Notes: generated from the sequence alone by a model not told the origin. Counted from the stretch's first letter, positions 2,846 through 22,463 are shown. The stretch is DNA of 64,000 nucleotides from a virus (IMGVR_UViG_3300043540_000321:1-64000), one strand, 5' to 3'. A program made the numbers and translations.

Positions 2846-3622
2846 TCACCGGTGCAAATTCTCGACCCGATCGAGGTATTCATTGACCAAATTAACATAA
2901 GCGACCGAAACTGGCGCACTTCGGTACCGAAAAATGGACTGTCCACGGGCTGTTGCATTCACCTGACGACGGCTGTAAGGGATGACGGTTTCAAACACCA
3001 GGTCGCCCAGAGCCTCGCGCACATCGGTAATAGATGCCTGTGTAGACGGGCTGTTCGGTCGCTCTACCAAGGTGAGCACAATGCCAAGTACCTGTCCGAT
3101 CGGGTAACTCAACATCTCTCTTAAAGAAGAGAGGCGATCGAGCAATGTGATCACTCCCTCCTCACTGAGGTAGCGCAGTTGGACAGGGACGAGCAGGTTT
3201 TGCGAAGCGACCAGGGCGTTGATGGGTAAGAGAGAAAGAGAAGCTGGAGAGTCGATGAGGATATAGTCGAACTGTTCAAATAAAGGCTCCAAAGCCTGTT
3301 TCAGGACTACTTCCTTGCTTGGATGACCCAGGAGTAGGGCATCGAAGAAGATAAGGTCGGGACTGGCAAAGATAATCGATAGGTTTTCAGTAGGCGTTTG
3401 CTGGACAGCCTCCACGATCGGCATCCCTCGAAACACGTCCATCAGTGTCGGCGTGAGTTGAAGGCGACTGTACCCCATCGCTAACGCCGCGTTCGCCTGA
3501 AAGTCGCAGTCAACAATTAAGGTTCGATAGCCCTTCATTGCTATTCCCTGGCCCAAGGCGATACAGGTAGTAGTCTTACCGACGCCACCTTTAGCGTTGA
3601 CGATCGCAGTTATGTGAGGCAT
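2846..3622 (-). CDS. parA: ParA/Soj-family partition ATPase
   Basis: Deviant Walker A KGGVGKTT, LIVDCDFQAN, YILIDSP; no N-terminal HTH. Confidence 0.95.
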   Translation of the reverse strand: MPHITAIVNAKGGVGKTTTCIALGQGIAMKGYRTLIVDCDFQANAALAMGYSRLQLTPTLMDVFRGMPIVEAVQQTPTENLSIIFASPDLIFFDALLLGHPSKEVVLKQALEPLFEQFDYILIDSPASLSLLPINALVASQNLLVPVQLRYLSEEGVITLLDRLSSLREMLSYPIGQVLGIVLTLVERPNSPSTQASITDVREALGDLVFETVIPYSRRQVNATARGQSIFRYRSAPVSVAYVNLVNEYLDRVENLHR

Positions 3623-3682: not shown

Positions 3683-4120
3683 TGTTAGTGAAATGTTAGT
3701 GGATTTGTTAGTCCACTAACATTCAAATGTTAGTGGACTAACATCTGACCACGATTTACTAACATTTCACAAACACCCGACTAACATCTGACCACGATTT
3801 ACTAACAGTTGAATGTTATCGAACTGATGTACTATGTTAGGCGTTAGTAAATTTGCCAAAAAGCGTTAGTCGTGGAAATGTTAGTACGAACATTTGGATG
3901 TTAGTCCACTAACATTTCCACTAACATCGGCTGAAACCCCTGAAACTTCGTGACTAACATGTTAGTTGGATGTTAGTCCGAGAGCCCAAAATCCACTAAC
4001 ATTTGCCTGAAAGTTCGCACTAACATTTTTACTAACACCCCCAACTAACACGAGAATTGGGCGTTTGAGCCTCCCAGCCTTAAAAATCTAAAGATAAACT
4101 GGGGAAAAGTGGATGTTAGT
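3683..4120. repeat. Array of about 21 ACTAACA/TGTTAGT motifs; candidate centromere (parS-like), iteron or transfer locus
   Basis: Exact 7-mers in both orientations; inverted pairs (A)TGTTAGT-NN-ACTAACA(T) at 3706, 3727 and 3898; 29-bp direct repeat at 3736 and 3779; between divergent parA and the membrane operon. Confidence 0.85.
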
Positions 4121-4204: not shown

Positions 4205-4942
4205 ATGAGAGATTTCAAGAGGTCGCTACCTCAGAAAATTTTTATCCTCGTCATTACGGGGTCTACTGCCTTCATATTTACTGCTGCAATCACCGGTCTC
4301 TGGTCGGCGGCAAAAGACGCTGGCGCTATTAAGCCGGGCTTTAGGTTCGGCACCTTCGCCACGATCGTGGGCGTGTCCGGACTTGCCTCTCTGGTGACGT
4401 ATGGCGGTCTGATGCTTGACGAGGAGATGCGTCGGCGGGCAGCGATCGCAGAGGAAGAAGAGGAGCTGGCGAGAGAGCGGGAGAGGATGCGTCAATACTC
4501 TTATCCGCAACCGTATCCTCCGTCCTACCCGCCTCAACCTCCCCTCTACCCTCAGCCTGACCCTGCTCTAGCGGAGGCACTCAACAATTTACAGTTGGCC
4601 GATGTTGATTCCTTGTCTTATACACCGCCTCAGCGTCAGCCTCAGCCTCAGCCCCAACTTCGTCCTCCTTCGAGTAAAGAACCAACGGTGGGTCTCGACC
4701 TTGACTTTAGTCACCTTCGAGAACAACCTCCTTCTAGACCACCTGGGATAAGAAGAACCTCTGGTCTGGTTCCTCCTCGATTTGCAGATGAGGCACCACA
4801 AGTTGAGCCTCCCCAGTCAGGTACAACTTCGGAAACCGAGGAGGATTTTTGGGCAGACTCGCCTCTAGGAGTTCAACCTCAGGAGACAAACCCTCCTAAA
4901 ACCGAATCGAAGGCGAGCTATTTGGATAACTTGGGTCTCTAG
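4205..4942 (+). CDS. Membrane protein with Pro/Gln-rich cytoplasmic tail
   Basis: Two N-terminal hydrophobic segments, then YPQPYPP/QPQP repeats; first gene of a tightly packed operon. Confidence 0.75.
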   Translation: MRDFKRSLPQKIFILVITGSTAFIFTAAITGLWSAAKDAGAIKPGFRFGTFATIVGVSGLASLVTYGGLMLDEEMRRRAAIAEEEEELARERERMRQYSYPQPYPPSYPPQPPLYPQPDPALAEALNNLQLADVDSLSYTPPQRQPQPQPQLRPPSSKEPTVGLDLDFSHLREQPPSRPPGIRRTSGLVPPRFADEAPQVEPPQSGTTSETEEDFWADSPLGVQPQETNPPKTESKASYLDNLGL

Positions 4943-4956
4943 TCAAGGAGGAAACT

Positions 4957-5673
4957 ATGGAGCTGGAATCAGAGTTCCAAAAACCCGGTGGGTACAGAGC
5001 AAAACTAAAGTTCACGGGTAACGTGGACGAGTTTCACGCGGTCTATACCTCAAACAACTACTATATCCACACAACTTCCTTGCCGCCGGTTCAGTTCTTC
5101 CAAACCATGCACCAGCCGATTCAGATTGCTCCGGCAGCTCCGCATACGGTGAACAACAATAACTTGTTGTTGCCGGGACAGGAGTATGCTTACACACTGC
5201 CATCGGCACCACTCCCTGCGTTACCTCCAGCTCCTACCCAGCCTTCCAACTACTGGTCTCAGACAGTAGACACATCGGCGCACACTCTAAACGGTCTACA
5301 GAGAACGTTGCAGGGTATCAACAGTCCCTCTAATCAAGGAGGTGGGTTTTCGAAATTCATTCGGGGACTGTTCAGCAAGAAGGAGAAAGACCCGCTCGCT
5401 CAATACCAGGCGATGTTGGCACAAGTCAATGGCCAGAAGGCAGGAGGGGGTTTTAATCATAAGATGCTGATCTACGCTGTTGACGCACTACTCGTGATAA
5501 TGGCTCTCTATGTTGTGTTCAGTCCTTCGGGACAGAACCAGATTAAAAATTATCTGAGGCCGCTTACTAACCTTGTTAACCCTTCCTCTGTGGAGGGGAG
5601 CAAGTCGCAGGTAAGACCTCAGGTAAAACCTCAGGTAAAACCTGGTCCTATGGAAGATCCCAACAAAGTGTAA
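4957..5673 (+). CDS. Hypothetical membrane protein
   Basis: AGGAGG RBS; single TM segment LIYAVDALLVIMALYVVF; QVKP tandem repeat near the C-terminus. Confidence 0.75.
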   Translation: MELESEFQKPGGYRAKLKFTGNVDEFHAVYTSNNYYIHTTSLPPVQFFQTMHQPIQIAPAAPHTVNNNNLLLPGQEYAYTLPSAPLPALPPAPTQPSNYWSQTVDTSAHTLNGLQRTLQGINSPSNQGGGFSKFIRGLFSKKEKDPLAQYQAMLAQVNGQKAGGGFNHKMLIYAVDALLVIMALYVVFSPSGQNQIKNYLRPLTNLVNPSSVEGSKSQVRPQVKPQVKPGPMEDPNKV

Positions 5674-5677
5674 GTCA

Positions 5678-6334
5678 ATGACTCAATTCGACAGAGAGGA
5701 CTTTGAGTCCCTTCTCCAAAAGACGATTAACGCAACTGTAGTCCATGAGGGTGAAGAAGTGACAACGGGCTATGAGAATTTCCCGCGCCCGCCCCACCCC
5801 TCATCACCTCATAAGGCAGAAGCTGGGAAGTCCGGCTATACTCAATCTCGGCACACTCAGTCTCATCCGTCTTCGCGTCCGACTCCCCAACCAGCCCGAC
5901 CGCAGCCTTCGACATCTCCGAGGGGGTCTCAATCCACTGGTTTTCCAAAACAAGGTGGGTTAGGATTAGAGAATAGCCAGTCTCAACCTGAGAGGAGGGA
6001 CTCTCCATCTGAGAAAACCCCTTTTTGGGGTCGTTTCCAGAGAGGTCAGGGTAGTCCTTCTGAGAAAGGAGAGGCGTCTAAACCCGCATCTGCGAAAAAG
6101 AGCTGGAAAACTTTAATAAAGAAATGGCAGTCTCATTTAGGGGACTTGAGTGTAACCTTCCTGGCTTGTCATTTCATTGCCCACCTATTCCACCTGTTTT
6201 TGAGACCGGGGCCTTACGGCTACCTTCTCGATTTCAGACTCTTGATAGTGGTTGCTGCGATAGGAGGAATTCTTCAGCAAAAACAGGTGGTCACGATAGC
6301 GATCTGCCTCCTACTTAGTTTTCTGATGTTTTAA
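5678..6334 (+). CDS. Membrane protein with disordered N-terminus and C-terminal TM helices
   Basis: 218 aa with about 3 hydrophobic segments at the C-terminus; 4-5 nt gaps to neighbours. Confidence 0.75.
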   Translation: MTQFDREDFESLLQKTINATVVHEGEEVTTGYENFPRPPHPSSPHKAEAGKSGYTQSRHTQSHPSSRPTPQPARPQPSTSPRGSQSTGFPKQGGLGLENSQSQPERRDSPSEKTPFWGRFQRGQGSPSEKGEASKPASAKKSWKTLIKKWQSHLGDLSVTFLACHFIAHLFHLFLRPGPYGYLLDFRLLIVVAAIGGILQQKQVVTIAICLLLSFLMF

Positions 6335-6339
6335 CGAGT

Positions 6340-8511
6340 ATGCAACTAACTGGCCTCCCGAATAAGGAGGTAATCAACCACCAAATTGAGCGAATCAAGA
6401 AGCTCAGCATTAATAACCGGGAGGTGTTGCGCGACCTCGGCACCATAATAATCCCGAATTTTGAGAAGTGGTTACCATTCATCGATGAGATGAAATTAGG
6501 CATATCTGCTCGAGAGGTCAAACAACTTCTGGCTACGCAGTTTTGTCTTCGTGTCTTGATAGACACTCAAGGAAAACCACCCGACGATCCCGCCGTCAAA
6601 GAAGGTCTAAAGCTATGGATAGACTGGGTGAACCACTGGCAAGTTGGGGATTCCAAAGAGCAAATCCTAAGAGACGCGCACACTATTATGCAGGCCGCAG
6701 CACCTACTTCTAACTCGACTTCCTTCGCTAACTCACCTCGAACTGCCCCCACAGCCAGTTCGGGACCGAGCGAGCCGTCAGCATCATCTCAGTTGACTCG
6801 TGCGAATCCGACGGCGGTAGTCCGACGGCCAGTTGAGACTCAAGTTATCAAGACTATCGGTCGGAACACTCTTCTTAAAGGAGAGATGGTCGAGCAGGCC
6901 TACAGTTCGATTGGAAAGATCGAGTTCCTTCCAGAAGACTCATCTGACCGGGGGCTTAGGCATGACCGCCTACGTTTTAAGAAGCCGTTAACGGTCACTT
7001 TTGCCGCCTGTAAAAAGGTGCTGCAGGAGGTGATCAGTCACGCCGGAGTGGACCCTGAAACGGAGATACTCTTCAGGGCGTTGGCGAACAACCAGTTCGA
7101 CCTGCACATTCCCAGGCCGCCGGAGCAGTGGAAGATTCTCAGCTACACGGATTTCTTACACGCAGGATGGGATAAGTCGAAGTCGACTTTGGGCTCCTAT
7201 CTCTCTCGGAGATTTTTTGTTCCGCCGCATGAGCCTCCTCGAGTCCCGGTCGGGGTGAACCTGGATATGGAAGAGGTGGCTATCCGGTTTAGTACGGGTG
7301 TGTTTATCACTGGGAAACCAAACCAGGGTAAATCCGAGCTGGTGAAATCCATCCTGATGACCCTGGCGATCGGATTCCAACCGAACTATCTATGGTGGGT
7401 AGGCGCGGACTGGAAAGACGGGGCCTTACTCGATAAGTTCTCTTGCCTTCCTAGCTGTGTGCAACCGATCGCCAAGTCGGAAAAGGAAGCCCAGGAGCTC
7501 ATGAAGTGGTTGAAGGCTCAGTTCAAAAGGAGGGAGCGACTTCTCGACCCCTATAAGAAATATGGTGTTGAGAACATTTGTCACTACAACAAACTGCCGG
7601 ATGTTGAACCCATGCCCTGGCTGCTCCTCTTCTGGGAAGAGCTGGCTCGAGGTCGTGAAGTCTTAGGAGAGACTCAAGACGAGTTTCTCCGTTCGGTCTG
7701 TCAATACTGGCGGTATATCGGGATTATTCCCGTCGCCACCACCCAGTATCCCTCTCAGAATATATCTGGCTCTGGACCCGGTATGCGTTCTGCCTATGGG
7801 ACAAAGGTTGCCTTCAAAAATGATGAGGGAGCTAAACTCCTATTTGGTGAAAGTAGCATTCACGCTAAGTACGCTCAGGCTCTCAACGGACCTGGGGACT
7901 GTATAGTCGTAGGTGACGATAGCTTCGATCGTTGCCAGACATTCTTTGTCGAGCCAGAAATCTTGCTGCAGATTATCGATGCGATATCTCAGCGTGATGC
8001 TGACTATTCCCTACCAGAGCTCGCTCTGATTGGACCAGAAGAAGAGGAACGAGCGGTGGCTTCGGACCCTTCTTCGCCAGCCTCCTCGGAATCGGAACCG
8101 GATCGGGAGGAAGTGCTGGCTATGAGTACGAGTTACCAGGAAGAGACTATTACGGAAACGGACGAGAGCGATCTCTCGGACCTGCCCAATAATATGCTCG
8201 ACATGGTACGAAGGTTTCAGGATTACAACAGATTGATGCAACTGGATGCCGACCTGAAGAAGGAAGGTAAGCCAGGCGTCACTCAAAACCATAAATTGGC
8301 TATGCTGGTCGGAGACTATCTCTATCCAAAAGGAGACCCCCGGCGTGGAGTGTACCAGGGATGGTTATCTGTTGATGAATTTAAGAACCTTGACAAATCC
8401 GATCCGAGATTAAAGGTGTCTAAGGGAGGTCGTTACTTAGATAACGCGAAGCTCCGCTTGGAGGAGATTATCCAGAAAGTCTCCGGGGTAAACCAGCCTG
8501 TGGCTTGCTAA
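6340..8511 (+). CDS. FtsK/SpoIIIE-family ATPase (DNA translocase-like)
   Basis: Walker A ITGKPNQGKS, ADWKDG, Walker B-like LLLFWEELA, WRYIGIIPVATTQYPS, GPGDCIV. Confidence 0.85.
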   Translation: MQLTGLPNKEVINHQIERIKKLSINNREVLRDLGTIIIPNFEKWLPFIDEMKLGISAREVKQLLATQFCLRVLIDTQGKPPDDPAVKEGLKLWIDWVNHWQVGDSKEQILRDAHTIMQAAAPTSNSTSFANSPRTAPTASSGPSEPSASSQLTRANPTAVVRRPVETQVIKTIGRNTLLKGEMVEQAYSSIGKIEFLPEDSSDRGLRHDRLRFKKPLTVTFAACKKVLQEVISHAGVDPETEILFRALANNQFDLHIPRPPEQWKILSYTDFLHAGWDKSKSTLGSYLSRRFFVPPHEPPRVPVGVNLDMEEVAIRFSTGVFITGKPNQGKSELVKSILMTLAIGFQPNYLWWVGADWKDGALLDKFSCLPSCVQPIAKSEKEAQELMKWLKAQFKRRERLLDPYKKYGVENICHYNKLPDVEPMPWLLLFWEELARGREVLGETQDEFLRSVCQYWRYIGIIPVATTQYPSQNISGSGPGMRSAYGTKVAFKNDEGAKLLFGESSIHAKYAQALNGPGDCIVVGDDSFDRCQTFFVEPEILLQIIDAISQRDADYSLPELALIGPEEEERAVASDPSSPASSESEPDREEVLAMSTSYQEETITETDESDLSDLPNNMLDMVRRFQDYNRLMQLDADLKKEGKPGVTQNHKLAMLVGDYLYPKGDPRRGVYQGWLSVDEFKNLDKSDPRLKVSKGGRYLDNAKLRLEEIIQKVSGVNQPVAC

Positions 8512-8514
8512 CCT

Positions 8515-9384
8515 GTGTTATTTCGACTGCTTGCAGTAGCGATTATCTTATTCTCAGTAAAAGGTCAGTTGATGAAGGTGTTGGTTGGTCTGAGATCTCT
8601 CTCAGCCTCCGCACCTTCAGTTGTATCCATACCCGAAAAGCCGAAGGTGACAGACCCGCGCAAAGTCAGTGTTCAAGTCAGAGTTCAAACCATCACTGAA
8701 GACCGCGCAAGGTATAGTTTCGGGTCTGGAACTTTTATTAAACCCAATATTGTGCTGACCAACGCGCATGTGACCCAACCGTCAGGGGATGGTACGGTGT
8801 CCATCAATTTGGACAGCGATCCAACTGTTCCGCCCCTGGTTGGAAAAATTATTAAACAAGTGAAGTCGCCTGACCAGGAGGAAGGAACAGACCTGGCCCT
8901 GGTCCAGGTAGAAGGAAACCATCCTTACATAGATCTCTGCTCAGAGCTTCCACCTGTCGGTCTAGTGATGAAGATCCTGGGACATCCGAGAGGGTCAAGA
9001 GATGTTGTAGAGACCGCAGCGGTTGCGGCGATCGTCAAGCCCACTTTTCTGGAACTGAATCTGAAGCTCAAACGGTTTTATCCCGTCCAACCGGGCAATA
9101 GTGGAGGACCTCTGCTTCAGGGAGATTCAGATTCTGGTTACTGCCAGGCCGGAGTCGTCAGCCAAGTAGATACACGCCCAGGTTATCCTCGCCCCAATAT
9201 ACAGCGGGTGCGAGCGCAGTCCATCAAACAGATCAAGAAGTTTTTAGATACGTTTTACAGTCGCCCTTTTTCATGGCATGACAAAAAGGCGGCGGAGAAA
9301 GTTCTTAGACCTATAGAAGGACTTCCATCGGAGTTGGTATCAGTAGCCTGTTTGTTCGCATGGAATCAAAGGGATCGGGTGTAG
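8515..9384 (+). CDS. Secreted trypsin-like serine protease
   Basis: N-terminal hydrophobic leader; catalytic triad motifs LTNAHV, TDLALV, PGNSGGP. Confidence 0.9.
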   Translation: MLFRLLAVAIILFSVKGQLMKVLVGLRSLSASAPSVVSIPEKPKVTDPRKVSVQVRVQTITEDRARYSFGSGTFIKPNIVLTNAHVTQPSGDGTVSINLDSDPTVPPLVGKIIKQVKSPDQEEGTDLALVQVEGNHPYIDLCSELPPVGLVMKILGHPRGSRDVVETAAVAAIVKPTFLELNLKLKRFYPVQPGNSGGPLLQGDSDSGYCQAGVVSQVDTRPGYPRPNIQRVRAQSIKQIKKFLDTFYSRPFSWHDKKAAEKVLRPIEGLPSELVSVACLFAWNQRDRV

Positions 9385-9427
9385 TCAATGAAGCGCACCG
9401 TTAAGTGTTCACAAAAGGGAAACTAAG

Positions 9428-10105
9428 ATGTCGAATTTTACTGAAGAGAAAAAGCTTGCCACTACGCTCGAAGAGGCTCGCGAGTGTTGCCGTCGTCTCC
9501 TCTCACTGGGTAGCTTTTATCTGGCTGAGGACAAAGATTTTGACTGTGTTAGCTATCTAGAACCCGGCCGAGTCCAAGACCTAAGTGATGATGAACTGAG
9601 GAGAGTCTGGTTCTCGCCCAATGGATTCGATAAGACGATTGTCGGTCGCAGCAATTCTCGAGTTCTGGAAAAACTTTTCTGGAGCGACATTTACGATAAT
9701 CCTGTTTTGGGAACCTGCTTCCGAGTTTATTTTATGTCGCTTGGGATTATAGAGGTTCTCGAAAGTCTGGCCGATTATCCTCTCCTCGATGAGGATGTAT
9801 ATCATGAGGAGATGGCTGAAGCTCAAGAAGAACTCTGGAATGACTGGCTTAAAAGTGAAGTAGTCTCGGAGATTGAGGACTTTCTTAGAAAGGAGTATGG
9901 AGCGTCCTACGTCGAGGTCGACTATAGATGCGGTGATGAGGAGGAGTTCTTCAAACTATTCTGGGAAAAGCTGAACGAGACCGGTGGCGAGTGGGTTGAA
10001 GAGCAAGATGGACTGTCTTGTCGCGGCTATACTGAGGCAGCTAGAGCCTTCGCACTTAAAGAATTGATGCCGATAGGACTCTCGGTTTTCTTCGAAGGAC
10101 AGTAA
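9428..10105 (+). CDS. Hypothetical acidic protein
   Basis: 225-aa ATG ORF within the operon. Confidence 0.7.
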   Translation: MSNFTEEKKLATTLEEARECCRRLLSLGSFYLAEDKDFDCVSYLEPGRVQDLSDDELRRVWFSPNGFDKTIVGRSNSRVLEKLFWSDIYDNPVLGTCFRVYFMSLGIIEVLESLADYPLLDEDVYHEEMAEAQEELWNDWLKSEVVSEIEDFLRKEYGASYVEVDYRCGDEEEFFKLFWEKLNETGGEWVEEQDGLSCRGYTEAARAFALKELMPIGLSVFFEGQ

Positions 10106-10106
10106 G

Positions 10107-10724
10107 ATGTTGGGCATTCTATTCAGACTGGGGGCTGTGGGTATCATCCTTTTCCTCTGCTGGGGAACGATCCGATCCGCTCTGGCCCCCTTCTTTACGC
10201 AACCTGCAAATATCAGCTCAAAGATTATTGAGATCCGAAAGCGGTCCGAGCTGGCGACGGCATCTACGACCTCTCGCGTGACCGTGCAGGAAGAGCATCA
10301 GTCCACGAATACCGTGGCCAATGCTTTAGACTCCCTGGGTTTTCGCACCGGGCGGTCGCGTATCTCCCTGTCCGTTAACGTAACCGTAAAGGCGGGGGTC
10401 AATCTGGAAAAGGCAGAGGTTCAGGGGAACACGATCGTGCTGCCCTCTCCTCAGATCCTGGATGCGTTCGTCGACACCAAGACGATAAGTGTGGGTTGGG
10501 TCGAGAAAGGTGTGCTGGCGGATGAGACACATAAGCTGACTCTTCCGGCACAAAATGAGGCGCGTGCCCAGGGCATTGTCGATGCTTGCACCAACAATGT
10601 CTTAGGAAAGGCGGAAGAACAAGCTCTATCCACCGTCCGTAGACTCGTACCAGAAGCTGTTGTTAAAGTAGAGAAAGGTCAGAACAGTACTTGCAGAAAA
10701 GTCAATAGTTCTACCGAAGATTAA
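10107..10724 (+). CDS. DUF4230-like membrane-anchored protein
   Basis: N-terminal TM; VTVKAGVNLEK..IVLPSPQILD pattern typical of DUF4230. Confidence 0.65.
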   Translation: MLGILFRLGAVGIILFLCWGTIRSALAPFFTQPANISSKIIEIRKRSELATASTTSRVTVQEEHQSTNTVANALDSLGFRTGRSRISLSVNVTVKAGVNLEKAEVQGNTIVLPSPQILDAFVDTKTISVGWVEKGVLADETHKLTLPAQNEARAQGIVDACTNNVLGKAEEQALSTVRRLVPEAVVKVEKGQNSTCRKVNSSTED

Positions 10725-10748
10725 CTCAGTAGCTAGTTTTTATTAAAA

Positions 10749-11231
10749 ATGATTCAGCTCGAATGGTTGCCGACCGGATGGCGGCAGACTCTTTTCCTCA
10801 CATCGATGCTCACTTTTGGACTGGGGATTACCCTGGTCCTCAACTGGAACCTGGGGTTTATCATCGCGGTCACCACGATTGGGATTCTCACCCACTCATT
10901 AATGACTCACCGGCAGCACCAGTTACTCCTAACGGAGTGTCAGCTCCTCCGCTCTGAGCTGGTGTATGTGCAGGAACAACGAGTGAACTCGAACGGGATA
11001 TTGGAGGAGTGGACAGAGAAAGCGATCGCAAAGGATAAACAGGGGCGAGTCACTTGTCAGTACTGTAACTCGAAGATGCCTTTGCTGGAGTCATATCCTT
11101 TTGATCCGCATCTACACCTCAAGACTAAGGGAATGCCCTGTCTAGTTCCGATCGCCCGGTCTTATTTTTGTCGAATAGACATGGTACCTCCCCACATATG
11201 GGAGCATCACATGGAGAAGAAAAAGGTCTGA
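10749..11231 (+). CDS. Membrane protein with CxxC motif
   Basis: Two TM segments, coiled coil, CQYCNS. Confidence 0.65.
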   Translation: MIQLEWLPTGWRQTLFLTSMLTFGLGITLVLNWNLGFIIAVTTIGILTHSLMTHRQHQLLLTECQLLRSELVYVQEQRVNSNGILEEWTEKAIAKDKQGRVTCQYCNSKMPLLESYPFDPHLHLKTKGMPCLVPIARSYFCRIDMVPPHIWEHHMEKKKV

Positions 11232-11233
11232 AG

Positions 11234-12010
11234 ATGGCGATCGCTCGGAGGGTCAGCCTCCTTCTAATACTCTTCGCAGTCATCTCCGGTGGAGGCGCGG
11301 CGGTTAATAAAAAAGGGAGTAGTAAACCACAACCTCAGTTTGACCTCGCTGCAGCGATCGCCTCTTATATAGATAGGACTTACAAACCGAAAGGTTATCA
11401 GCTCCCCAGAGGAGAGAACCAGTATACAGTGGTGTACGTTGCGGGTATGAATGCCGACGGCACCTTGAACAACAACGAGCCGAATAGGTACAACGATCGG
11501 AGAATTCTGCTAACATTTGCTCAGGGTAAACCTCAAATTGCCGGGAACTGGCAGGCGACAGTCAGCCCAGGCTCAGTCTATGAAAATCCTCGTCTCGCCT
11601 ATACCCAGTTCGGACTTTTCCCCCAAGCCTACCGAATAGGCATACATGGGATGGTGTGTCCTCATGAAGCCTTGGTTCAGGTCAAGCCAATTATTGTGGC
11701 TCGAGGTCCAAACCAGCAAGGTGAGTATACCAACACCCGGATCGGGAAGAGGCGCGACGAAGGGGTGTTCGCTATCAACCAGCATGGTCCCTGTAAGGAC
11801 TCCGACACGGTTGATGGTTCGTCGGAAGGATGCTTAGTCGCTCGAAGAATGTCGGAGCATCGACAATTTATGTCTATGTTAAAGACAGATATTCGATATA
11901 AGACCAGTCCGGTCGGCCCGCCCATTCACTCAGGTGACCCTCCGTATCGTACGTTCGCCTGGGATCTCATAATTATTAGCGGGCAGAAACTTTTGGAGTC
12001 CACGAAGTAG
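11234..12010 (+). CDS. Exported L,D-transpeptidase-like (YkuD-type His/Cys) peptidoglycan enzyme
   Basis: Signal/TM leader from ATG 11234; VVYVAGMNADGTLNNNEPNRYNDRRI; INQHG..SSEGCLV catalytic-like motif. Confidence 0.55.
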   Translation: MAIARRVSLLLILFAVISGGGAAVNKKGSSKPQPQFDLAAAIASYIDRTYKPKGYQLPRGENQYTVVYVAGMNADGTLNNNEPNRYNDRRILLTFAQGKPQIAGNWQATVSPGSVYENPRLAYTQFGLFPQAYRIGIHGMVCPHEALVQVKPIIVARGPNQQGEYTNTRIGKRRDEGVFAINQHGPCKDSDTVDGSSEGCLVARRMSEHRQFMSMLKTDIRYKTSPVGPPIHSGDPPYRTFAWDLIIISGQKLLESTK

Positions 12011-12012
12011 CC

Positions 12013-12534
12013 ATGAAACTTTTTCTAACGATAATCTTAGTCGGGGGTATTGGAGCCGGAATTTATAAAGCGGCGACTCCTTCTTCTGCATCTACTAACC
12101 CCAGCCCAGCCTCAGTTACTCAGTCGAGTCCTGAGTCAACTGCTAACGAGGTCGTCATTCAAGGTGAGGAACCAAAAGTCGCAAGGGTTGAGTATCCATC
12201 GGGCGGGGAGAAGTCTGATAAAGCTCCTTGCCGTGACCTTGGAACCGGTGACACCGTGGTCATTATTGAGACGAGCACTCCTGACCGAGTAAAGTTGGCG
12301 GAGCAAGTTATCGCCGAGCACAACTTGAAAGGAACATACTGTGCCTCTCAAAGAACAGGGCGGACGGTATGGATGTCTGAGCAGGTTGAGGGTGCAACCT
12401 CAATGGATCGAGCTAAGAATTCTGTTCCGATATTCGACTACTTCCGGTCAGTTGGGCTTGTCTCGCCTGTTAACCTATCTAGGGGAGCCAATCAAGCAGA
12501 GCGCCCGACGAACTGGTCAGGAACCCAGCCCTAA
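12013..12534 (+). CDS. Exported hypothetical protein (last codons probably supplied by the IscB element)
   Basis: Hydrophobic leader, S/T/P linker; stop lies inside the IS end hairpin. Confidence 0.7.
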   Translation: MKLFLTIILVGGIGAGIYKAATPSSASTNPSPASVTQSSPESTANEVVIQGEEPKVARVEYPSGGEKSDKAPCRDLGTGDTVVIIETSTPDRVKLAEQVIAEHNLKGTYCASQRTGRTVWMSEQVEGATSMDRAKNSVPIFDYFRSVGLVSPVNLSRGANQAERPTNWSGTQP

Positions 12535-12770
12535 AGGACTGAGCTTGTAGACTCCCCGACGCTTAGGCGCGGGTACAAACCAAGCTATTCTGACCAGCCT
12601 AAGGCTTTCGAGGTCTACGTTTTTTGAGTCACGACACCCTGGAATGCGACGCTAGTTCCTTGCTCTGTCATCTGCAATTAAACAGTCTTAAGGTCACTGA
12701 GACAGTGTTGCAGGTCTAAAAAGCTCTTAAAACATTGGCGAAGCGAACATTACTTTTAGGAACCAACGCA
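12516..12770 (+). ncRNA. IscB omegaRNA scaffold
   Basis: Characteristic blocks TGACCAGCCTAAG, CTACGTT, GACACC..GGAATGC..CTAGTTCC..GCTCT, AAACAG, CAGTGT, AACATTGGCGAAG upstream of iscB. Confidence 0.8.
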
Positions 12771-14044
12771 ACCATGTTGAAACCCAATTTTGTTTTCGTG
12801 CTAGACACCAATCACAAACCGCTCACACCTTGCAAGCCTTCAATGGCGCGTAAGTTGCTGAAGGCTGGAAAAGCGGCGGTGTTTAGACGATTCCTGTTCA
12901 CCATCATCCTTAAAAAGGAGGTAGACGCTACGCCAGAACCGATTGAACTCAAATTAGATCCCGGTTCCAAAGTTACGGGAATCGCTCTCAAGCAAGGCAG
13001 TAAAGTTTTTTTTGGTGCAGAACTCACCCATCGCGGTCAAGCCATCAAAGCGAGTCTAGAATCACGCCGCTCATTGCGACGAGGTAGACGCGCTAGACAG
13101 ACTCGCTATCGTCAAGCCCGGTTTCTCAATCGGACTCGTCCTAAAGGTTGGTTAGCGCCTAGCCTTCAACATCGAGTCGAAACAACCCTAACTTGGGTGA
13201 ACAAATTCATCAAACTTGCACCCATCGGTTCCATCGTTCAAGAATTGGTACGCTTTGATTTACAGCAGGTTGAGAACCCTTGAAATCTCAGGGATTGAAT
13301 ATCAGCAAGGTGAACTCGCGGGGTATGAGGTCAGAGAATATCTGCTCAACAAGTGGGATAGAAAATGCGCTTACTGCGGTGCTGAAAACATTCCGCTTCA
13401 AGTGGAGCATATTCACCCAAAAGTCAAAGGTGGCTCTAACCGCATCTCTAATCTGTGTCTGGCTTGTGATGACTGCAATCAGAAAAAAGGCACTCAGGAC
13501 ATCAAAGCTTTTCTAGCCAAAAAGCCTGATCTTTTGAAACAGATTTTGAGTCAAGCAAAACGCCCTCTCAAAGATGCAGCGGCGGTCAATTCAACCCGAT
13601 GGGCATTGTTCAATCGACTGAAAGAAACAGGTCTACCTGTCAGTACGGGGTCAGGAGGTCTAACCAAGTTCAATCGGACTCGTCTAGAACTGCCTAAAAC
13701 TCACTGGCTAGATGCGGCTTGTGTCGGTCAAGTTAACAAGTTGGAAGTGTTGACTAATCAACCGTTACTGATTAAAGCAACGGGTCACGGGTCGCGTCAA
13801 AGGTGCCGCACTGACAAGTTTGACTTTCCCAGTCGATACGTGCCCCGATTCAAGTTTGTTCAAGGCTTTCAGACAGGCGACATTGTGAAAGCTATTGTCA
13901 CATCTGGCAAGAAAGTTGGTGAATATGTCGGACGGGTTGCGGTTCGTTCTAGCGGCTCGTTCAACATTTCCGACAAGTCGGGATTGGTTCAAGGCATCAG
14001 CTACAAATACTGCAAATCTATTCACAAAAAGGGCGGTTACTCGT
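12516..14044 (+). mobile_element. Non-autonomous IS200/IS605-superfamily IscB element
   Basis: Starts GTCAGGAACCCAGCCCTAAAGGACTGAGCTTG, then omegaRNA-like leader and iscB; no tnpA; boundaries inferred. Confidence 0.75.
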
Positions 14045-14055
14045 ATGGCTTTTGA
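12774..14055 (+). pseudogene. iscB: IscB RNA-guided endonuclease with a +1 frameshift at about 13280
   Basis: PLMP (LTPCKPSMARKLL), RuvC-I LDPGSK, Arg-rich bridge helix, ELVRFD, HNH CAYC..EHIHP..GG.N..NL..AC..CN, RuvC-III HWLDAAC; an extra T breaks ENP|EISG. Confidence 0.9.
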
Positions 14056-14800
14056 TGTAAGTGAGTACGAGCTCGCTCTCGAAAACCTGAAGACTGTTCG
14101 AAAAACAGTCGATGTATTAGTCCAAAGTTGTATTCTGAATAGTATTGCCGACCCTCGCTATACAGGCGTCAGAGAAGTCATTGATCAAATCCTGGCGACC
14201 GTTGTATGGCCTGGAGAACTCCAGCCCAAGATGTGTGTTGGGCTGCATCACTGGTTGATACAGAGAGACCCTGAGATTGCGGCACAATTCGCTAGATTAG
14301 GACAGCTATTAGAGCAATATGAAAACCAGATTAGGACTGTCGAGCTGCCGACTCCATCAGAACGATTGACTTCCCTGGTGCGAGAAAAGTTACAAGCAGA
14401 AATCGCCGTCCGCCAGACCGTAAGAAACTCTTTGGGATTTTTTAACTTTATGTCATCAACAGATGAGAAAGCTCTTGAGCTATTAGATGCTGCCCGTGAG
14501 GTTATCAACGCTCAGTTGAGGATTTGGATTCTGGCTTCTATGGCAGACTCCAGGTATGACGGAGTGGGGCAAATATTAGAGGAAGTCTTAGCGACTATTA
14601 GGTTCCCAGGAGAGGTCCATCCGACGATGTGCGAACGCCTCTACGCCTACTTTCATCAATATGGAATGTACGAGGACGCTAGGAAGGCACACGAGATGGG
14701 GTCCCGCCTGAAGGAAGTTGAGGATGCTGTGACACAGTCCTTTCTTGCTCGACAACAACAAGAAAGACAGAACAGGAAAAAGATATTGGGGATTTTCTAA
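14045..14800 (+). CDS. Hypothetical protein with a duplicated ~90-aa domain
   Basis: ATG at 14045 (ORF track start 13895 overlaps iscB); ILNSIADPRYTGV..ILATVVWPGELQPKMC repeated as ILASMADSRYDGV..VLATIRFPGEVHPTMC. Confidence 0.7.
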   Translation: MAFDVSEYELALENLKTVRKTVDVLVQSCILNSIADPRYTGVREVIDQILATVVWPGELQPKMCVGLHHWLIQRDPEIAAQFARLGQLLEQYENQIRTVELPTPSERLTSLVREKLQAEIAVRQTVRNSLGFFNFMSSTDEKALELLDAAREVINAQLRIWILASMADSRYDGVGQILEEVLATIRFPGEVHPTMCERLYAYFHQYGMYEDARKAHEMGSRLKEVEDAVTQSFLARQQQERQNRKKILGIF

Positions 14801-15357
14801 TGAGTCAGGGTGTTTTCTACTATCAGGACGGGATACTGTTCATCCAAGCGGATAAGCAGGAGTTAGATGATATCCAACTAATCCTGCCTGACGAAGAGCA
14901 GATGTTCACTCGGTTCCACGAGCGGGATACTAAGCCCCTGAAAAGGATTTTCGATCGAGCGCTAGAGCAGTATGTAACTTGTACTGGACAGGAGAAGGAT
15001 GCCAATCCTCTGTGGTTAAAGATTCTCGATCAGGTCAGTCCAAAAGCGGGATTCGTCTTCTGGAATACCGCTCACTATAAGATGAGCGACTACCTCCAGC
15101 GAGCACTGTTTCCGATGCCAACCGAAGTGCTGACCGCTGTTCTCTTTGTGAACTCCAGTCCACAGACCCGAGTCACATTCGAGAGGCAGGAACTCTATTT
15201 GACGGGTGAAGAAGGCTGGCTGGTCGTGGCCCCGACTGGACTAACCCACTATCAGAAGTGGACCTTAGATCAGAAGGAGTCGAAAGCGATCGCCACCTTC
15301 TATCACTCCGATACCATTCCATCTCTATTGGTAGATGATTTATGGACTCGCTCCTAA
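14800..15357 (+). CDS. Hypothetical protein
   Basis: TAATG stop/start overlap with the upstream gene. Confidence 0.7.
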   Translation: MSQGVFYYQDGILFIQADKQELDDIQLILPDEEQMFTRFHERDTKPLKRIFDRALEQYVTCTGQEKDANPLWLKILDQVSPKAGFVFWNTAHYKMSDYLQRALFPMPTEVLTAVLFVNSSPQTRVTFERQELYLTGEEGWLVVAPTGLTHYQKWTLDQKESKAIATFYHSDTIPSLLVDDLWTRS

Positions 15358-15935
15358 AAGCCATTGCTTTGCATAGGGCAAAAGTTATTGAAAGAGAGGC
15401 TGCCGCAGAGAGGGCGTTTGACCTTCTGCGGCAGTTTTGTACGAGTATAGGAGTTCCAACGGACGACAAAACGTTGGAACTCGTTCTTAAAGTTCTGGAG
15501 GCGACTGCCGTCAAAGACATTCCTGTCCTGGCACCCTCCACTGAAACTGTTGAAGTTGAGTACGAGTCTGTCTCAGAACCAGACCCTCTGCCTGGGGTTT
15601 ACCATCGGGCAGACCGGAATACCTGGTCGGTCCGACCTCGCATCGGTAAGAAGCGCGTCCACCTGGCGACCTATCACTCGGTCGAGGAGGCGAATGCCGC
15701 AATGGAGGGATTCTTGATGGCGTATGATTACGCGGCTGAGATCTATGCAGAGACTCAAGAATCTCAACCAAACCCAACGCCAGACCCAACGCCTGTACCA
15801 GCATCTTCAAAAAAGGATAGCTCTCGTAGTAAGAGCAAACCAACCAGCACGCCCACTCTTGACCCCCATACGGGCAAGTGGATGCTGGGTGGTAAAGCGT
15901 ACGATAGCTACCCACTTAACGGGAAGAAAAGTTGA
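15342..15935 (+). CDS. AP2-domain DNA-binding protein
   Basis: PGVYHRADRNTWSVRPRIGKKRVHLATYHSVEEANAA matches the AP2 fold pattern. Confidence 0.75.
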   Translation: MDSLLKAIALHRAKVIEREAAAERAFDLLRQFCTSIGVPTDDKTLELVLKVLEATAVKDIPVLAPSTETVEVEYESVSEPDPLPGVYHRADRNTWSVRPRIGKKRVHLATYHSVEEANAAMEGFLMAYDYAAEIYAETQESQPNPTPDPTPVPASSKKDSSRSKSKPTSTPTLDPHTGKWMLGGKAYDSYPLNGKKS

Positions 15936-15995
15936 CGATCGGGCGCGAAATTAATAAACTTTTTAATAAATCACGACCCGGTTCTGGAGCTAAAG

Positions 15996-16910
15996 ATGAC
16001 CGCTAAAAAGCCATTTATACGATCTGTTAGCGTGGACGAGCCTGTCTGGAGACAATTCGAGGCTCTGTGCAATTCTAGTGGAAAGAGTCGAGCCACAAAT
16101 TTATTAATTTATCTCGTCACATTAGGCTACATCGATATTCAAGAGGGAGGGTCTCGCCTCCAGATCCCAGGGATTGTTGATGTGTTCTACAACGAGGCGA
16201 AGCAAGTCGTTGCAGAGGAGAGCACTTCGGGTGAGTTCGGAGAAACCCAGTCTCAGAGACTACTTCAGCTTATGGAGCAGAACAGAGACCTCTGCGAGGA
16301 ACTTAAAGAGGCTCAAAAACGCATCGAAGAGCTGAATAATCTGCTCTTTGAGTCCGATACGAACTCAAGTTTCCAGGCTGAGACCGAACCCGAAAATGTC
16401 GAACCGTTCAAACAGACTGAACTTTTAGAAACACCGACCGAACGTGCGGATATAGATCCAGAACTCGGTGCCAGCGGTCATGCCGTCATAGCCCAACAAG
16501 CTCGTCTAATTGATGGGTTAAAGAGAGTGATCCTCGCTCAGCAACAACAGCTCGCTGAGGCAAGAGCTCATCGAGTGGAAGTTGCGACTAATGGGCACCG
16601 TCATCCCGAAACAGTGGATGCTTCTACTCCTTCTACTCCTTCTACTAACGAGCCTGAGACATGGGAGCCTGCCGAAGGATTCTCTCTACCTCTACAGCTT
16701 GAAGGAGAGCGTCCTGTTATTCCAGCAAGTGAGGAGTTCATGATTGTTCAGAACCTGGCACAGCTATTGGACCAAATGCCTAATGGAGAAGCGTTTGAAT
16801 CACTCATCCAGCAAGCATTCACCGAGGCTGTTAATGAAGATCCAGTTACGGTCAGCCTTAACCCCCCTCTAGCTGAAGTCAGGGAGCTGGCGACGCCACT
16901 TACGGTTTGA
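15996..16910 (+). CDS. Hypothetical coiled-coil protein, possible N-terminal ribbon-helix-helix
   Basis: RSVSVDEPVWRQFEALC..KSRATNLLIYLV followed by coiled coils. Confidence 0.65.
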   Translation: MTAKKPFIRSVSVDEPVWRQFEALCNSSGKSRATNLLIYLVTLGYIDIQEGGSRLQIPGIVDVFYNEAKQVVAEESTSGEFGETQSQRLLQLMEQNRDLCEELKEAQKRIEELNNLLFESDTNSSFQAETEPENVEPFKQTELLETPTERADIDPELGASGHAVIAQQARLIDGLKRVILAQQQQLAEARAHRVEVATNGHRHPETVDASTPSTPSTNEPETWEPAEGFSLPLQLEGERPVIPASEEFMIVQNLAQLLDQMPNGEAFESLIQQAFTEAVNEDPVTVSLNPPLAEVRELATPLTV

Positions 16911-17116
16911 CCATGAAGAACTACGAAGAAAGACCTAAGGTATTCACTGTCTTTATTCGAGAGGTTGTCATCACCAAGGTGAGAGTGGGTGCCACGTCTC
17001 AGGAGGAAGCCCTTGAGTTAGCCGAGAGGGGTGTGGGACAGCGATCGCCCACTCCAGACTTCACTTACCTCGAGCATCCAATCTATTGGAGAGTGATAGA
17101 GGAAGCTGATATCTAG
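16907..17116 (+). CDS. Small DpnD/PcfM-like protein
   Basis: VFTVFIREVVITKVRVGATSQEEALELAE pattern; 4-nt overlap with the upstream gene. Confidence 0.55.
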   Translation: MTMKNYEERPKVFTVFIREVVITKVRVGATSQEEALELAERGVGQRSPTPDFTYLEHPIYWRVIEEADI

Positions 17117-19245
17117 GTCTTGATGATAAACAACACCCGACCGTGCTTCGGTATGGTGTTGATCGGCGTGCCGGAGCCTGTGTTCTGAAGCAGGATACCT
17201 GTACCGGACGAGTTGATACCCACACCGGTCGTTCCACTGACCACTGAGAGACCTGTGTATCCCAGGTTCACTCCAATGCCTGATGTAGCGGCGTTAGTCG
17301 GATACCGAAGGAAGTTAGGGGCGATCCATGCCGCCGGTCCGTCTACAGCCGGCGGAACTCCTCCTTGAATTACAGTCCCAGAGGTGGAACTGGTATACAC
17401 AGCCCACGAGTCCCACGTATGTTGGTGTCCTGGGTCTGACACGCCATGCACATGTCCTGGGTCAGAAACGTTATGGGTATGCCCGGTGTCCCGAATGGTA
17501 TGAGTATGTCCTGTGTCTGTAACAGCGTGGCTGTGAGCAGGAAGATTTGAGATCGATAGTGTGGTTGTGTTCGAGCCACCTGTAACCCCAACGGCGGCGG
17601 AGCCTGACGACCCAACCAAAGTACTGTCTGCCAGGTTGGGCAAGTTAAAGTTGCCTCCCGACCCGCCCCAGGTTGTTCCGATCGCGGCGTACAAGTTAGG
17701 GTAGGCGGCTGCACTGAGGGACCGTCCGTCACAGGGGAGGTACCCACTGGGCACGTTCGCGGCGACCCCACCGAACGGCAAGATGACTCCGGGAGGGAAT
17801 GTAGCGTTAGCCGCCAGAGCGGAGTTGACGTAGGCTGTGGTGGCTACGTTCTGACTGTTGTCTCCGGTGATTGGAGTCGGAGCTGTCACTGTTCCGACGA
17901 AGGCAGCCCCACTCAAACTTGCCTTCTGCGCCAGGAGGTTATCGACCGAGGTCTTCAAGTAGACAACCGGGTTCGAGGCTGTTTGGTCAATCTTGACCAG
18001 ACCAAACAGAGTGGGAGTTGCGATCGCCAGAGCATTCACGATGTTCTGGTTCACCAACCCCTGCACAAATGCAGTGCTGGCTGCGTTCTGACTGTTGTCG
18101 GTCAAGGCGACAGTCGGCACTGTAATACCTGCTGTGAATGTCGTAGGCCCGCTAACTGTCGCATTATTCGACACAACAAGAGGGCCACTGATGGTGGTGT
18201 TGCCAGCGGCCGCCAGCGGTCCTTGAGTATTCAAGGACCCGTTTGTCTGTACGTTGCCTGTGAAGGTTAGGTTGTTCGGAACAGTAAGAGCATCGTAGAC
18301 GGCAGCAGACATTCCAACTGGGACAGCCGCTGGGTCTACAGTGGCAACGGACGAGAAGTCAGAGTGTAGAACGACACCTGTAAGTTGTCCGTTGTAGATA
18401 ATACTGCTGGAGGACAGGCTACAGTTCGAGCGACCCAACACCTCCAGGAAATTAATAAAACTGGCTCCCGCGCAGGGGCATTGAAGAGGAAGTCCAGTCG
18501 CCCGGGTGGACACTTTAATAATGGATGAGTTATTGCCCTGAATATGGCAGCGCCCGGTTCCTCCAACCGTGTAGCCCTGCAAGATATTCAGGTGAGACTC
18601 ATCCAGAGTGATATGAGAGGTCTGAATCGTGTTATCGGTCGGACCGATCGAGTTGAAAGTTACGTTCCCCAGGTAGATTAACCCGCGCCTCAGAGCTGAG
18701 ACGAACGCTACACCACCTGTGTTGGTGTTCAAGGTGTTGGTCGCGAAGACAATATCATGGAGTTCAACTCGAGCATTGTCTTGAACTCGCAGACAGTACG
18801 GCGAGGTGGCTACATTCAAAGTCCAGGTGACCTGTCCGGACTGACCGGCTGTCCTCTGAAAAACGAAGTGAGCGTACTGCCCACCGTACGACAGGGGCGG
18901 GGTGCCTATAATGACAGAGTCCGTGTACTGACCCGGCGACAGATTAATAATAATCTGCTGGTTAGTGATATTAAAGCTGTAGGCAAGAGTGACTGCCGCA
19001 GCTATAGTTTTAAGAGGATTATTCGAGTTGAGTCCTGACGACGTGTCATTTCCACTCGGAGAGACATAGATATTCAGCGGAGAAGTAACGCGAGGTATGG
19101 CACTTCCAGAGAGAACGGCCATGTTTGCGTTGAACTTTTGGAAACAAGAGCGAAACGGATCGCCTGTGCCGTCATCGGGTGCATTTCCGATGTTGATTTG
19201 CTGAAGACTCTGACTTCCGAAAGGAAGATTAGGTAGGTTAACCAT
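17113..19245 (-). CDS. Phage tail fibre with tail-collar domain
   Basis: QINIGNAPDDGTGDPFR..KFNAN (T4 gp9/gp10-like N-terminus); DNSQN.A(S/T)TA(F/Y)V repeats; collar PPGVILPFGG..GYLPCDG..YPNLYAAIGTTWG..FNLPNL; HxH repeats. Confidence 0.9.
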   Translation of the reverse strand: MVNLPNLPFGSQSLQQINIGNAPDDGTGDPFRSCFQKFNANMAVLSGSAIPRVTSPLNIYVSPSGNDTSSGLNSNNPLKTIAAAVTLAYSFNITNQQIIINLSPGQYTDSVIIGTPPLSYGGQYAHFVFQRTAGQSGQVTWTLNVATSPYCLRVQDNARVELHDIVFATNTLNTNTGGVAFVSALRRGLIYLGNVTFNSIGPTDNTIQTSHITLDESHLNILQGYTVGGTGRCHIQGNNSSIIKVSTRATGLPLQCPCAGASFINFLEVLGRSNCSLSSSSIIYNGQLTGVVLHSDFSSVATVDPAAVPVGMSAAVYDALTVPNNLTFTGNVQTNGSLNTQGPLAAAGNTTISGPLVVSNNATVSGPTTFTAGITVPTVALTDNSQNAASTAFVQGLVNQNIVNALAIATPTLFGLVKIDQTASNPVVYLKTSVDNLLAQKASLSGAAFVGTVTAPTPITGDNSQNVATTAYVNSALAANATFPPGVILPFGGVAANVPSGYLPCDGRSLSAAAYPNLYAAIGTTWGGSGGNFNLPNLADSTLVGSSGSAAVGVTGGSNTTTLSISNLPAHSHAVTDTGHTHTIRDTGHTHNVSDPGHVHGVSDPGHQHTWDSWAVYTSSTSGTVIQGGVPPAVDGPAAWIAPNFLRYPTNAATSGIGVNLGYTGLSVVSGTTGVGINSSGTGILLQNTGSGTPINTIPKHGRVLFIIKT

Positions 19246-22022: not shown

Positions 22023-22439
22023 CTAGATTGCCGGGGAGTCCTGATTCTGAATGTACTGCTTCAATACTTCAATCGGAGCCCCGCCAGTAGACGCAACAAA
22101 GTATTGTTCACCCCAAAGTACATTCTTCCAGTAGAACTTGCTCAGTTCTTCGGCAAACTCTTTTCTCAGGATCCGGCTAGAGGCTGACTTGAGGCTACCC
22201 ATCAGGCTTGAGATGTTGTTGTCTGGATGCAGATCAATCAAGAGATGAATATGGTTAGCTTCTGCCCCGCACTCCTCAAGGGTGCATTTTCGCGCTTCCA
22301 GCACTCGCGTAAAGATCTCCTCTAGCCGTTTGACCATTGCCGCATTGAAAACGTGCTTACGGTATTTAGGGACAAAAAAGACGTGCAAGTGAATTGAGAA
22401 AACGCAATGTGAAGCTTTTCTATAGGTAGTCTTAGACAT
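22023..22439 (-). CDS. tnpA: IS200/IS605 Y1 (HUH) transposase
   Basis: HLHVFFVPKYRK, HUH motif NHIHLL, LWGEQYF.S.G, catalytic Y in KQYIQNQ. Confidence 0.95.
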   Translation of the reverse strand: MSKTTYRKASHCVFSIHLHVFFVPKYRKHVFNAAMVKRLEEIFTRVLEARKCTLEECGAEANHIHLLIDLHPDNNISSLMGSLKSASSRILRKEFAEELSKFYWKNVLWGEQYFVASTGGAPIEVLKQYIQNQDSPAI

Positions 22440-22463
22440 GACAACTCAAGCTACAATAACCTC

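Follow-up and report, generated by a model that had tools for sequence, protein, structure and literature searches.

An operon built around an FtsK-type ATPase lies near the start of IMGVR_UViG_3300043540_000321:1-64000, a stretch of viral DNA, and its layout suggests a possible DNA pump encoded by a large cyanophage. The window, which here means the whole 64,000-nucleotide stretch that was analyzed, is the first 64 kb of an IMG/VR virus record of 195,211 bp (100% complete according to CheckV). The operon consists of ten open reading frames (ORFs) on the + strand from 4205 to 12534, and the gaps between them are 14, 4, 5, 3, 43, 1, 24, 2, and 2 bp when the ATG at 11234 is taken as the start of the ninth gene. 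With gaps of 1-43 bp and all genes on one strand, the region fits its preliminary description as ten tightly packed, co-oriented genes. Upstream, and divergently oriented (- strand), are the gene for a ParA-type partition ATPase (2846-3622; PF13614 AAA_31, E 6.5e-43; CbiA, E 1e-17) and, downstream of parA, the gene for a putative ParA partner of 517 amino acids (aa) (1235-2788), which has a weak DUF3102 match below cut-off (E 0.008) and no PHROG match. An array of the repeat ACTAACA(T)/(A)TGTTAGT, in both orientations and with spacings near 11 bp and multiples of it, occupies 3683-4120.

The first three genes encode the three Pro-rich membrane proteins that had been reported ahead of the ATPase, with 13.9%, 10.1%, and 9.2% Pro and transmembrane (TM) candidates in each. 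ORF1 (4205-4942) has an N-terminal TM candidate at residues 12-30 and a long acidic, Pro-rich tail, and it has no match in the family libraries. ORF2 (4957-5673) has a soluble N-terminal part, a Pro-rich linker, and a TM candidate near the C-terminus (170-188), and in ORF3 (5678-6334) a disordered Pro/Ser-rich N-terminal part precedes two or three C-terminal TM candidates (157-216). Past the motor gene (6340-8511) comes that of a membrane-anchored or secreted trypsin-like serine protease (8515-9384; Trypsin_2, E 2.5e-12), which has an N-terminal hydrophobic anchor and the motifs TNAHV, TDLALV, and GNSGGP, so that the catalytic motifs are intact in sequence. An acidic cytoplasmic protein (9428-10105) follows, with 50 acidic (D+E) versus 23 basic (K+R) residues, a weak phrog_3906 match, and nothing usable from an Atlas search. 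The seventh gene (10107-10724) encodes a DUF4230 protein with an N-terminal anchor (PF14014, E 5e-12). The N-terminal anchors of the DUF4230 protein (ILFRLGAVGIILF, 10107-10150) and of the protease (MLFRLLAVAIILF, 8515-8560) are nearly identical, and the remainder of the two proteins is unrelated; the anchors may share a sorting or partner-binding signal. The eighth gene (10749-11231) encodes a protein with two TM candidates (2-TM) and a CxxC...H...C motif that two relatives share, and the tenth (12013-12534) an exported or anchored protein of 173 aa with an N-terminal hydrophobic segment. In all of these, the secreted protease, acidic protein, DUF4230-like protein, CxxC membrane protein, and further exported protein of the preliminary description are recognizable.

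The ninth gene (11234-12010; phrog_3000) appears to encode an anchored peptidoglycan enzyme. It has no Pfam YkuD match and is therefore a remote member of that fold, and as such the L,D-transpeptidase-like enzyme proposed earlier can be retained, given its His...(S/T)xGC motif and the structural scan. Its relatives are mostly cyanobacterial proteins fused to PG_binding_1, and the family motif NQH(W)G...S(A/E)GCLV has an invariant H196 with S-A/E-G-C212-L-V 16 residues on. When its structure was scanned against 48,161 PDB chains, the top 20 matches were all of the YkuD fold, at Z scores of only 6.2-3.3. They include L,D-transpeptidases, the L,D-carboxypeptidases Csd6, Pgp2, and Bd1075, as well as DpaA and Tlde1a.

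The motor of 723 aa is the operon's sole ATPase-family match. It has no hydrophobic segment or TM candidate and a single FtsK_SpoIIIE domain (PF01580, E 1e-8), so it is indeed the TM-less, single-domain FtsK/SpoIIIE ATPase that was first described. A helical N-domain (9-120) and a Pro-rich linker (123-174) precede an alpha domain (177-290) and a RecA-like beta domain (300-555), and an acidic linker leads on to a C-terminal region that is helical. Neither terminal region has relatives among PDB sequences, and Pfam gives no match besides PF01580. A word-based homologue search gave no useful relatives. An exhaustive HMMER search returned about 30 clusters (at 50% identity) of single-domain proteins of 520-730 aa, which align over about residues 130-550, with multi-domain EssC/EccC-like proteins ranking next. 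In the family alignment, the helical N-domain varies, a Pro-rich linker follows, and next come a conserved domain of some 110 residues, a RecA-like domain, and C-terminal tails that vary again. Across the 23 family members in which the active site was read, G325, G330, K331, and S332 of the Walker A motif (G325-S332), the Walker B glutamate E434, the sensor glutamine Q469 (in TQYPS), and the arginine finger R483 are invariant or nearly so. The tail is a CPxC...CxxC zinc ribbon in eight members and different in others, and such variety would fit exchangeable DNA-recognition modules. Ahead of the motor the family is essentially TM-less, with no more than marginally hydrophobic stretches in three of its members, whereas three to six TM segments occupy this place in E. 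coli FtsK and the rest of its clade.

An AlphaFold2 model made with the family alignment has a predicted local distance difference test (pLDDT) score above 90 across most of residues 180-560. Its best structural match is FtsK bound to double-stranded DNA (dsDNA) (6t8b; Z 37.4, root-mean-square deviation [rmsd] 2.7 Å, 355 residues), and the VIA alignment pairs residues 172-566 of the model with FtsK 331-721, so that both the alpha and beta domains are covered. The match to EccC (Z 29.5, rmsd 2.9 Å, 283 residues) begins only at residue 264. TcpA (Z 25-26, rmsd 4.5-7.5 Å, about 330 residues) and HerA and VirB4 (Z 15-19) come lower. As modeled, the motor has the full FtsK alpha+beta fold of a dsDNA translocase. 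The model of residues 580-723 is all-helical with pLDDT 33-67, and it gives no confirmation of the winged helix suspected at 630-723 (pLDDT below 65).

A maximum-likelihood tree of 114 motor domains gives the family a clade of its own (31 rows; SH-aLRT 97), separate from the E. coli FtsK clade (SH-aLRT 97) and from the EssC D1 and D2 clades. The motor therefore groups outside the type VII secretion ATPases and has an FtsK-type fold, as the proposal of a DNA motor had required. Kinship with TraB found no support in this comparison: pIJ101 Tra, the one reference that represents TraB-type proteins, does not group with the family, scores 41.6 bits against the family motor profile (FtsK-type proteins score 118-150), and sits unplaced on a long branch. 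The weak sister of the family is an FtsK group from Calothrix plasmids. In the plasmids of Calothrix sp. NIES-4105 and PCC 7716, both typed as MOBV mobilizable, this 722-aa FtsK/SpoIIIE protein is encoded in co-oriented operons of about 20 mostly hypothetical genes with an M23B peptidase. The protein library also holds giant proteins of 2,300-3,100 aa (P0010, P0012, P0019-P0021, and P0028) with six to eight tandem FtsK-type ATPase domains of two alternating types, which the tree assigns to the EssC-like D1 and D2 clades.

The gene context of the motor recurs in two other mobile elements. One is the 1.2-Mb plasmid pA of Kovacikia minuta CCNUW1, and the other is IMGVR_UViG_3300034132_000016, which is a provirus by the class of its record; Pfam found no match in ten of its large ORFs. 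A tblastn search of plasmids with further motor-family members led only to Kovacikia pA again. The motors of the two relatives are 27-28% identical to the phage motor and 40-41% identical to each other. In both, the order is a repeat array, a small helix-turn-helix (HTH) protein, a helical protein, a protein whose TM is N-proximal and whose tail is acidic and Pro-rich, a Pro/Gln-rich protein, a C-terminal-TM protein, the motor, variable genes, the CxxC 2-TM protein, and a cell-wall hydrolase. The protein with the Pro/Gln-rich middle has a C-proximal hydrophobic segment that passes the TM threshold only in the plasmid. ORF2 has the same layout as its positional counterparts, and the best BLAST matches of ORF3 are its own counterparts, at weak scores (E 0.24 and 0.28); hhalign was not significant for either. 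The core common to the three elements is thus an array of about 11-bp period, three membrane proteins of like architecture, the motor, the CxxC 2-TM protein, and a wall hydrolase. This means that conservation of the cluster, as first supposed, holds for the core and fails for the protease, acidic protein, and DUF4230 gene, which only the phage has; the protease has no homologue in either relative.

The CxxC 2-TM protein has a homologue at 14840-15319 of Kovacikia pA locus L002 (E 8e-6 to 3e-5), which is in turn homologous to 10031-10540 of provirus locus L006 (E 8e-25). The YkuD-like enzyme is 44% identical to the product of L002 15294-16061. In the provirus, the slot after the CxxC gene (10571-11263) is filled by an M23 peptidase, recognized by its metallopeptidase motifs, which looks from the sequences like a non-orthologous replacement of the wall enzyme. 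Since different hydrolases occupy the same slot, the CxxC protein appears to be tied to a wall enzyme. The 173-aa exported protein also has homologues (E 1e-8 to 1e-9), on the opposite strand in the relatives, at L002 5435-6031(-) and L006 56-586(-). Another exported protein directly follows the motor in both relatives (L002 13689-14447, L006 7219-7929), and its homologue in the phage is encoded about 110 kb away, at 115524-116219.

The repeat array stands out from the rest of the phage genome. It holds 21 of the 30 genome copies of the 7-mer ACTAACA/TGTTAGT and all 16 copies of the 8-mer. From composition, about 12 copies of the 7-mer would be expected per strand across the 195 kb, and outside the array it is rarer than expected, at 9 copies versus about 24. 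In Kovacikia pA, the array has 12 copies of TGTCCA at an exact 11-bp period, with 6 + 4 tandem and 2 inverted copies, and the array of the provirus has the repeat CCTGTTAC in 3 + 3 tandem copies and 1 inverted copy. An adjacent array had been suggested as part of the system, and its position directly upstream of the operon, with phasing of about 11 bp, is indeed kept at all three loci, with a different repeat sequence at each. No ParA-sized gene was seen beside the arrays of the relatives, where family-library scans covered a minority of the flanking ORFs; the array thus seems to move together with the FtsK-type operon rather than with parA alone. In the phage, a ParA ATPase with an adjacent phased iteron-type array fits a partition locus of type I (ParA). 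Iterons that are helically phased and lie on either side of a central stretch are typical of centromere or operator sites that are bound by a small adaptor protein. The form of the array is also compatible with a loading site like clt.

The operon had been placed in a cyanobacterium, and this needs correction. The record encodes a tail-sheath C-domain protein, an E-type major capsid protein, and a Mu-like prohead protease, which make the replicon a tailed cyanophage genome. Capsid proteins of Microcoleus phage My-WqHQDG and of the Microcystis phages Ma-LMM01 and MaMV-DC share 30-34% identity with its own, and a complete replication module lies within the window. The replicon is a 195-kb contractile-tailed phage related to Ma-LMM01. 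The absence of conjugation genes noted in the window now extends to the entire record for two families: neither VirB4 (PF03135) nor the relaxase family PF03432 has a match in the 195 kb, with controls positive (in Caulobacter for VirB4). Relaxases of the MOBF, H, V, T, and C types were not searched genome-wide, and Pfam scans of the window's larger ORFs found no relaxase family. No tyrosine integrase (PF00589) was found in the 195 kb either, again with a positive control.

One could consider the operon a membrane-tethered "split FtsK" that pumps dsDNA of the element itself, a reading that is preferred tentatively and held with somewhat less than even confidence. The fold and family of the motor, the conserved synteny, the arrays, and the cell-wall enzyme are shown by the analysis; that the products form a complex, that its substrate is DNA, what the array does, and in which direction and to what end DNA is moved are inferences. 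The alpha+beta motor should assemble as a hexameric ring. The three membrane proteins encoded ahead of it, with their long Pro/Gln-rich tails, would most likely hold this ring at the cytoplasmic membrane and so stand in for the N-terminal TM domain and Pro/Gln-rich linker of cellular FtsK. The phased 8-mer array could be the cis site at which the element's DNA is marked as its own by a DNA-binding protein, with a probable second role in regulating the operon. The protein that binds it may be the small HTH protein in the relatives and, in the phage, the C-terminal region of the motor or the ParA partner. The CxxC 2-TM protein and the cell-wall enzyme after it would open or remodel the peptidoglycan at the site, to which the phage's protease, DUF4230 protein, and exported protein may contribute.

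The purpose of such a pump would be to move the element's dsDNA at or through the septum or envelope. The DNA might spread into a neighboring cell of the filament, in the manner of TraB and Spd proteins, or a plasmid-like phage genome might be cleared and segregated at division together with ParA; these uses are about equally likely. Septal segregation of a plasmid-like phage genome would fit the lack of an integrase match. A bolder version, which is a long way from probable, is that the phage, which can probably persist as a ParA-partitioned plasmid, also spreads without virions: the tethered pump, loaded at the ACTAACAT array, would push the dsDNA genome through the septum to neighbors in the filament. 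It would then be an independent cyanobacterial counterpart of TraB/Spd that is shared with plasmids and proviruses of filamentous cyanobacteria.

Of course, several points weigh against a tethered DNA pump. Gene contexts were compared at three loci out of about 30 motor-family clusters. ORF1-3 match their positional counterparts in architecture, and hhalign, at a probability of about 1%, gives no significant homology. Three genes, those of the protease, the acidic protein, and the DUF4230 protein, are specific to the phage and fall outside the conserved core. In a profile search against PDB sequences, EccC came first by summed score (8e-52, over three domains); the best single-domain score was that of FtsK, at 125 bits. 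DNA recognition by the motor is unproven, since its C-terminal domain is modeled poorly. The phage array adjoins parA and resembles an ordinary iteron-type centromere or operator. Cell-to-cell transfer of DNA by the operon is pure inference, and septal segregation with the adjacent ParA is equally economical. The carrier is a tailed phage, which is already able to move DNA between cells. Finally, the function of the motor family is a prediction from sequence and models.

Relaxase-free transfer of dsDNA by an FtsK-type motor, with no type IV secretion system, is firmly established in mycelial actinomycetes. In Streptomyces, TraB binds 8-bp repeats in clt, and its partners, the Spd proteins, are diverse, membrane-bound, peptidoglycan-binding proteins encoded in tightly coupled operons (PMC4447253). 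The systems of pSVH1 and pIJ101 resemble the phage module in having an FtsK-type motor as the sole ATPase, no relaxase or VirB4 (in the phage, none of the families searched), an operon for diverse small membrane proteins in which neighboring codons touch or overlap, proteins directed at peptidoglycan, and 7-8-bp repeats in an array of the element's own. In the two relatives, the operon also begins with an HTH regulator. A further likeness is a filamentous host, to judge from Kovacikia and from the homologues of the YkuD-like enzyme in Stenomitos and Coleofasciculaceae. However, the phage motor shows no specific kinship to pIJ101 Tra, the one TraB-type reference, is TM-less, and lacks a confirmed C-terminal winged helix; the phage repeats are in both orientations; and the module is on a tailed phage whose host would be of the gram-negative type, with an outer membrane. 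By analogy, the module could be called TraB/Spd-like in architecture alone, and it is not assigned to the TraB family.

Cellular FtsK/SpoIIIE offers the best structural match over the alpha and beta domains, as well as Pro/Gln-rich linkers, and the TQYPS of the phage motor presumably sits where FtsK has TQRPS. The phage motor differs in belonging to a separate clade from E. coli FtsK and in having no detected gamma domain. Its membrane and linker parts are on separate polypeptides, the N-terminal multi-pass domain being absent from the motor itself, and its gene is on mobile elements with a clustered repeat array instead of dispersed sites of the KOPS type. A precedent for a soluble translocase that works at the septum through protein partners is SftA, the TM-less FtsK paralogue of Bacillus subtilis. 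TcpA of pCW3 (PDB 6o1w-6o1z) and TraD of pELF2 are also single-domain FtsK-type ATPases from operons with small membrane proteins and wall hydrolases, and TraD, like the phage motor, is TM-less and thought to be anchored by partner membrane proteins (PMC13492992). Minimal FtsK-type motor units are cited in several other bacterial groups as well (PMC13492992). The TcpA and TraD systems need a second ATPase of the VirB4 type (TcpF or TraC), whereas VirB4 has no match in the 195 kb of the phage, and the rmsd of TcpA to the phage motor is high.

Other explanations are less likely than the pump. One of them, which we consider unlikely, is a role in the infection cycle. Here, the tethered motor would pull in the rest of the 195-kb genome after a first step of entry, or it would block or expel superinfecting DNA, with the periplasmic enzymes serving wall remodeling or the timing of lysis. 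The replicon is, after all, a relative of lytic-type tailed phages, many phages carry FtsK-like accessory genes, and a 2-TM protein followed by a cell-wall enzyme resembles a holin/endolysin layout. Yet the closest known relatives, Ma-LMM01 and My-WqHQDG, do not have the module, and the same core is present on the 1.2-Mb Kovacikia megaplasmid. That plasmid has no capsid gene of the phage's type and its sole sheath-like match is about 300 kb from the module, which argues that the module is not tied to this phage lineage.

It is also improbable that the genes do not form one machine at all. An FtsK-like accessory gene and membrane genes would then lie by chance beside unrelated envelope genes and a ParA centromere, and the array would be parS or an operator. 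In the relatives, half of the ten genes have no conserved counterpart, the array adjoins parA in the phage, and phage genomes are mosaic by nature, all of which would suit such a chance neighborhood. The close spacing of the genes speaks for a common unit, though, as does the fact that the array, the three membrane proteins, the motor, the CxxC protein, and the hydrolase turn up together in three elements with motors of only 27-41% identity.

Export of proteins in the manner of type VII secretion, driven by the ATPase through its membrane partners and with the protease in the place of MycP, is very unlikely. ESX systems do bring together an ATPase of the FtsK type, membrane proteins, and a serine protease anchored in the membrane. 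EssC and EccC belong to the same superfamily as the phage motor (RecA-like domain, Z 25-29.5) and are encoded in operons with membrane proteins; EssC and EccCa are also its best NCBIfam matches, weak and far below cut-off, and EccC leads the PDB sequence matches by summed profile score. However, the phage motor has one ATPase domain in place of three tandem domains behind TMs, has no TM or forkhead-associated (FHA) region, has an alpha domain that aligns with FtsK and not with EccC D1, and belongs to a family outside the EssC D1 and D2 clades. Neither relative has the protease, the tails of several family members are zinc ribbons, and no WXG100-like small protein was noticed, although no systematic search for one was made. 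A capsid-packaging ATPase is unlikely as well, given virion genes of the kind found in tailed phages and the fact that FtsK, and not A32/PRD1-type packaging ATPases, gives the best fold matches. A known defense system is rejected, as PADLOC returned generic domain matches only.

The significance of the module is that a separate family of TM-less FtsK motors, with membrane partners, wall enzymes, and phased arrays of its own, is carried by three cyanobacterial elements (a phage, a megaplasmid, and a provirus), and those relatives that could be identified belong to filamentous forms. If DNA is moved between cells, this would be a new route for gene flow and phage persistence in multicellular cyanobacteria. 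If the use is segregation, it would be an FtsK substitute encoded by a mobile element and working with ParA. For either use the cassette is defined and testable, and one carrier, Kovacikia minuta CCNUW1, is a cultured strain.

Several neighboring features of the window complete the picture of the locus. An IscB-like element (12735-14055, + strand; RRXRR, PF14239, E 5e-69; HNH, E 2.5e-11) separates the tenth gene from the co-oriented gene after it; this insertion splits the operon and is not part of the system. Beyond it, at 14045-16910 on the + strand, are four further co-oriented genes without TM segments, for which no informative family match was found except a weak HNH/AP2 match in 15342-15935; it is possible that the operon continues past the insertion into these genes. 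Directly past this region is the gene for a 710-aa phage tail-collar domain protein (17113-19245, opposite strand), distant from the main virion gene block (about 65-102 kb). The phage genome also carries an IS200/IS605-type pair at 22023-23756, made up of a Y1 transposase and a TnpB/Cas12f-like OrfB.

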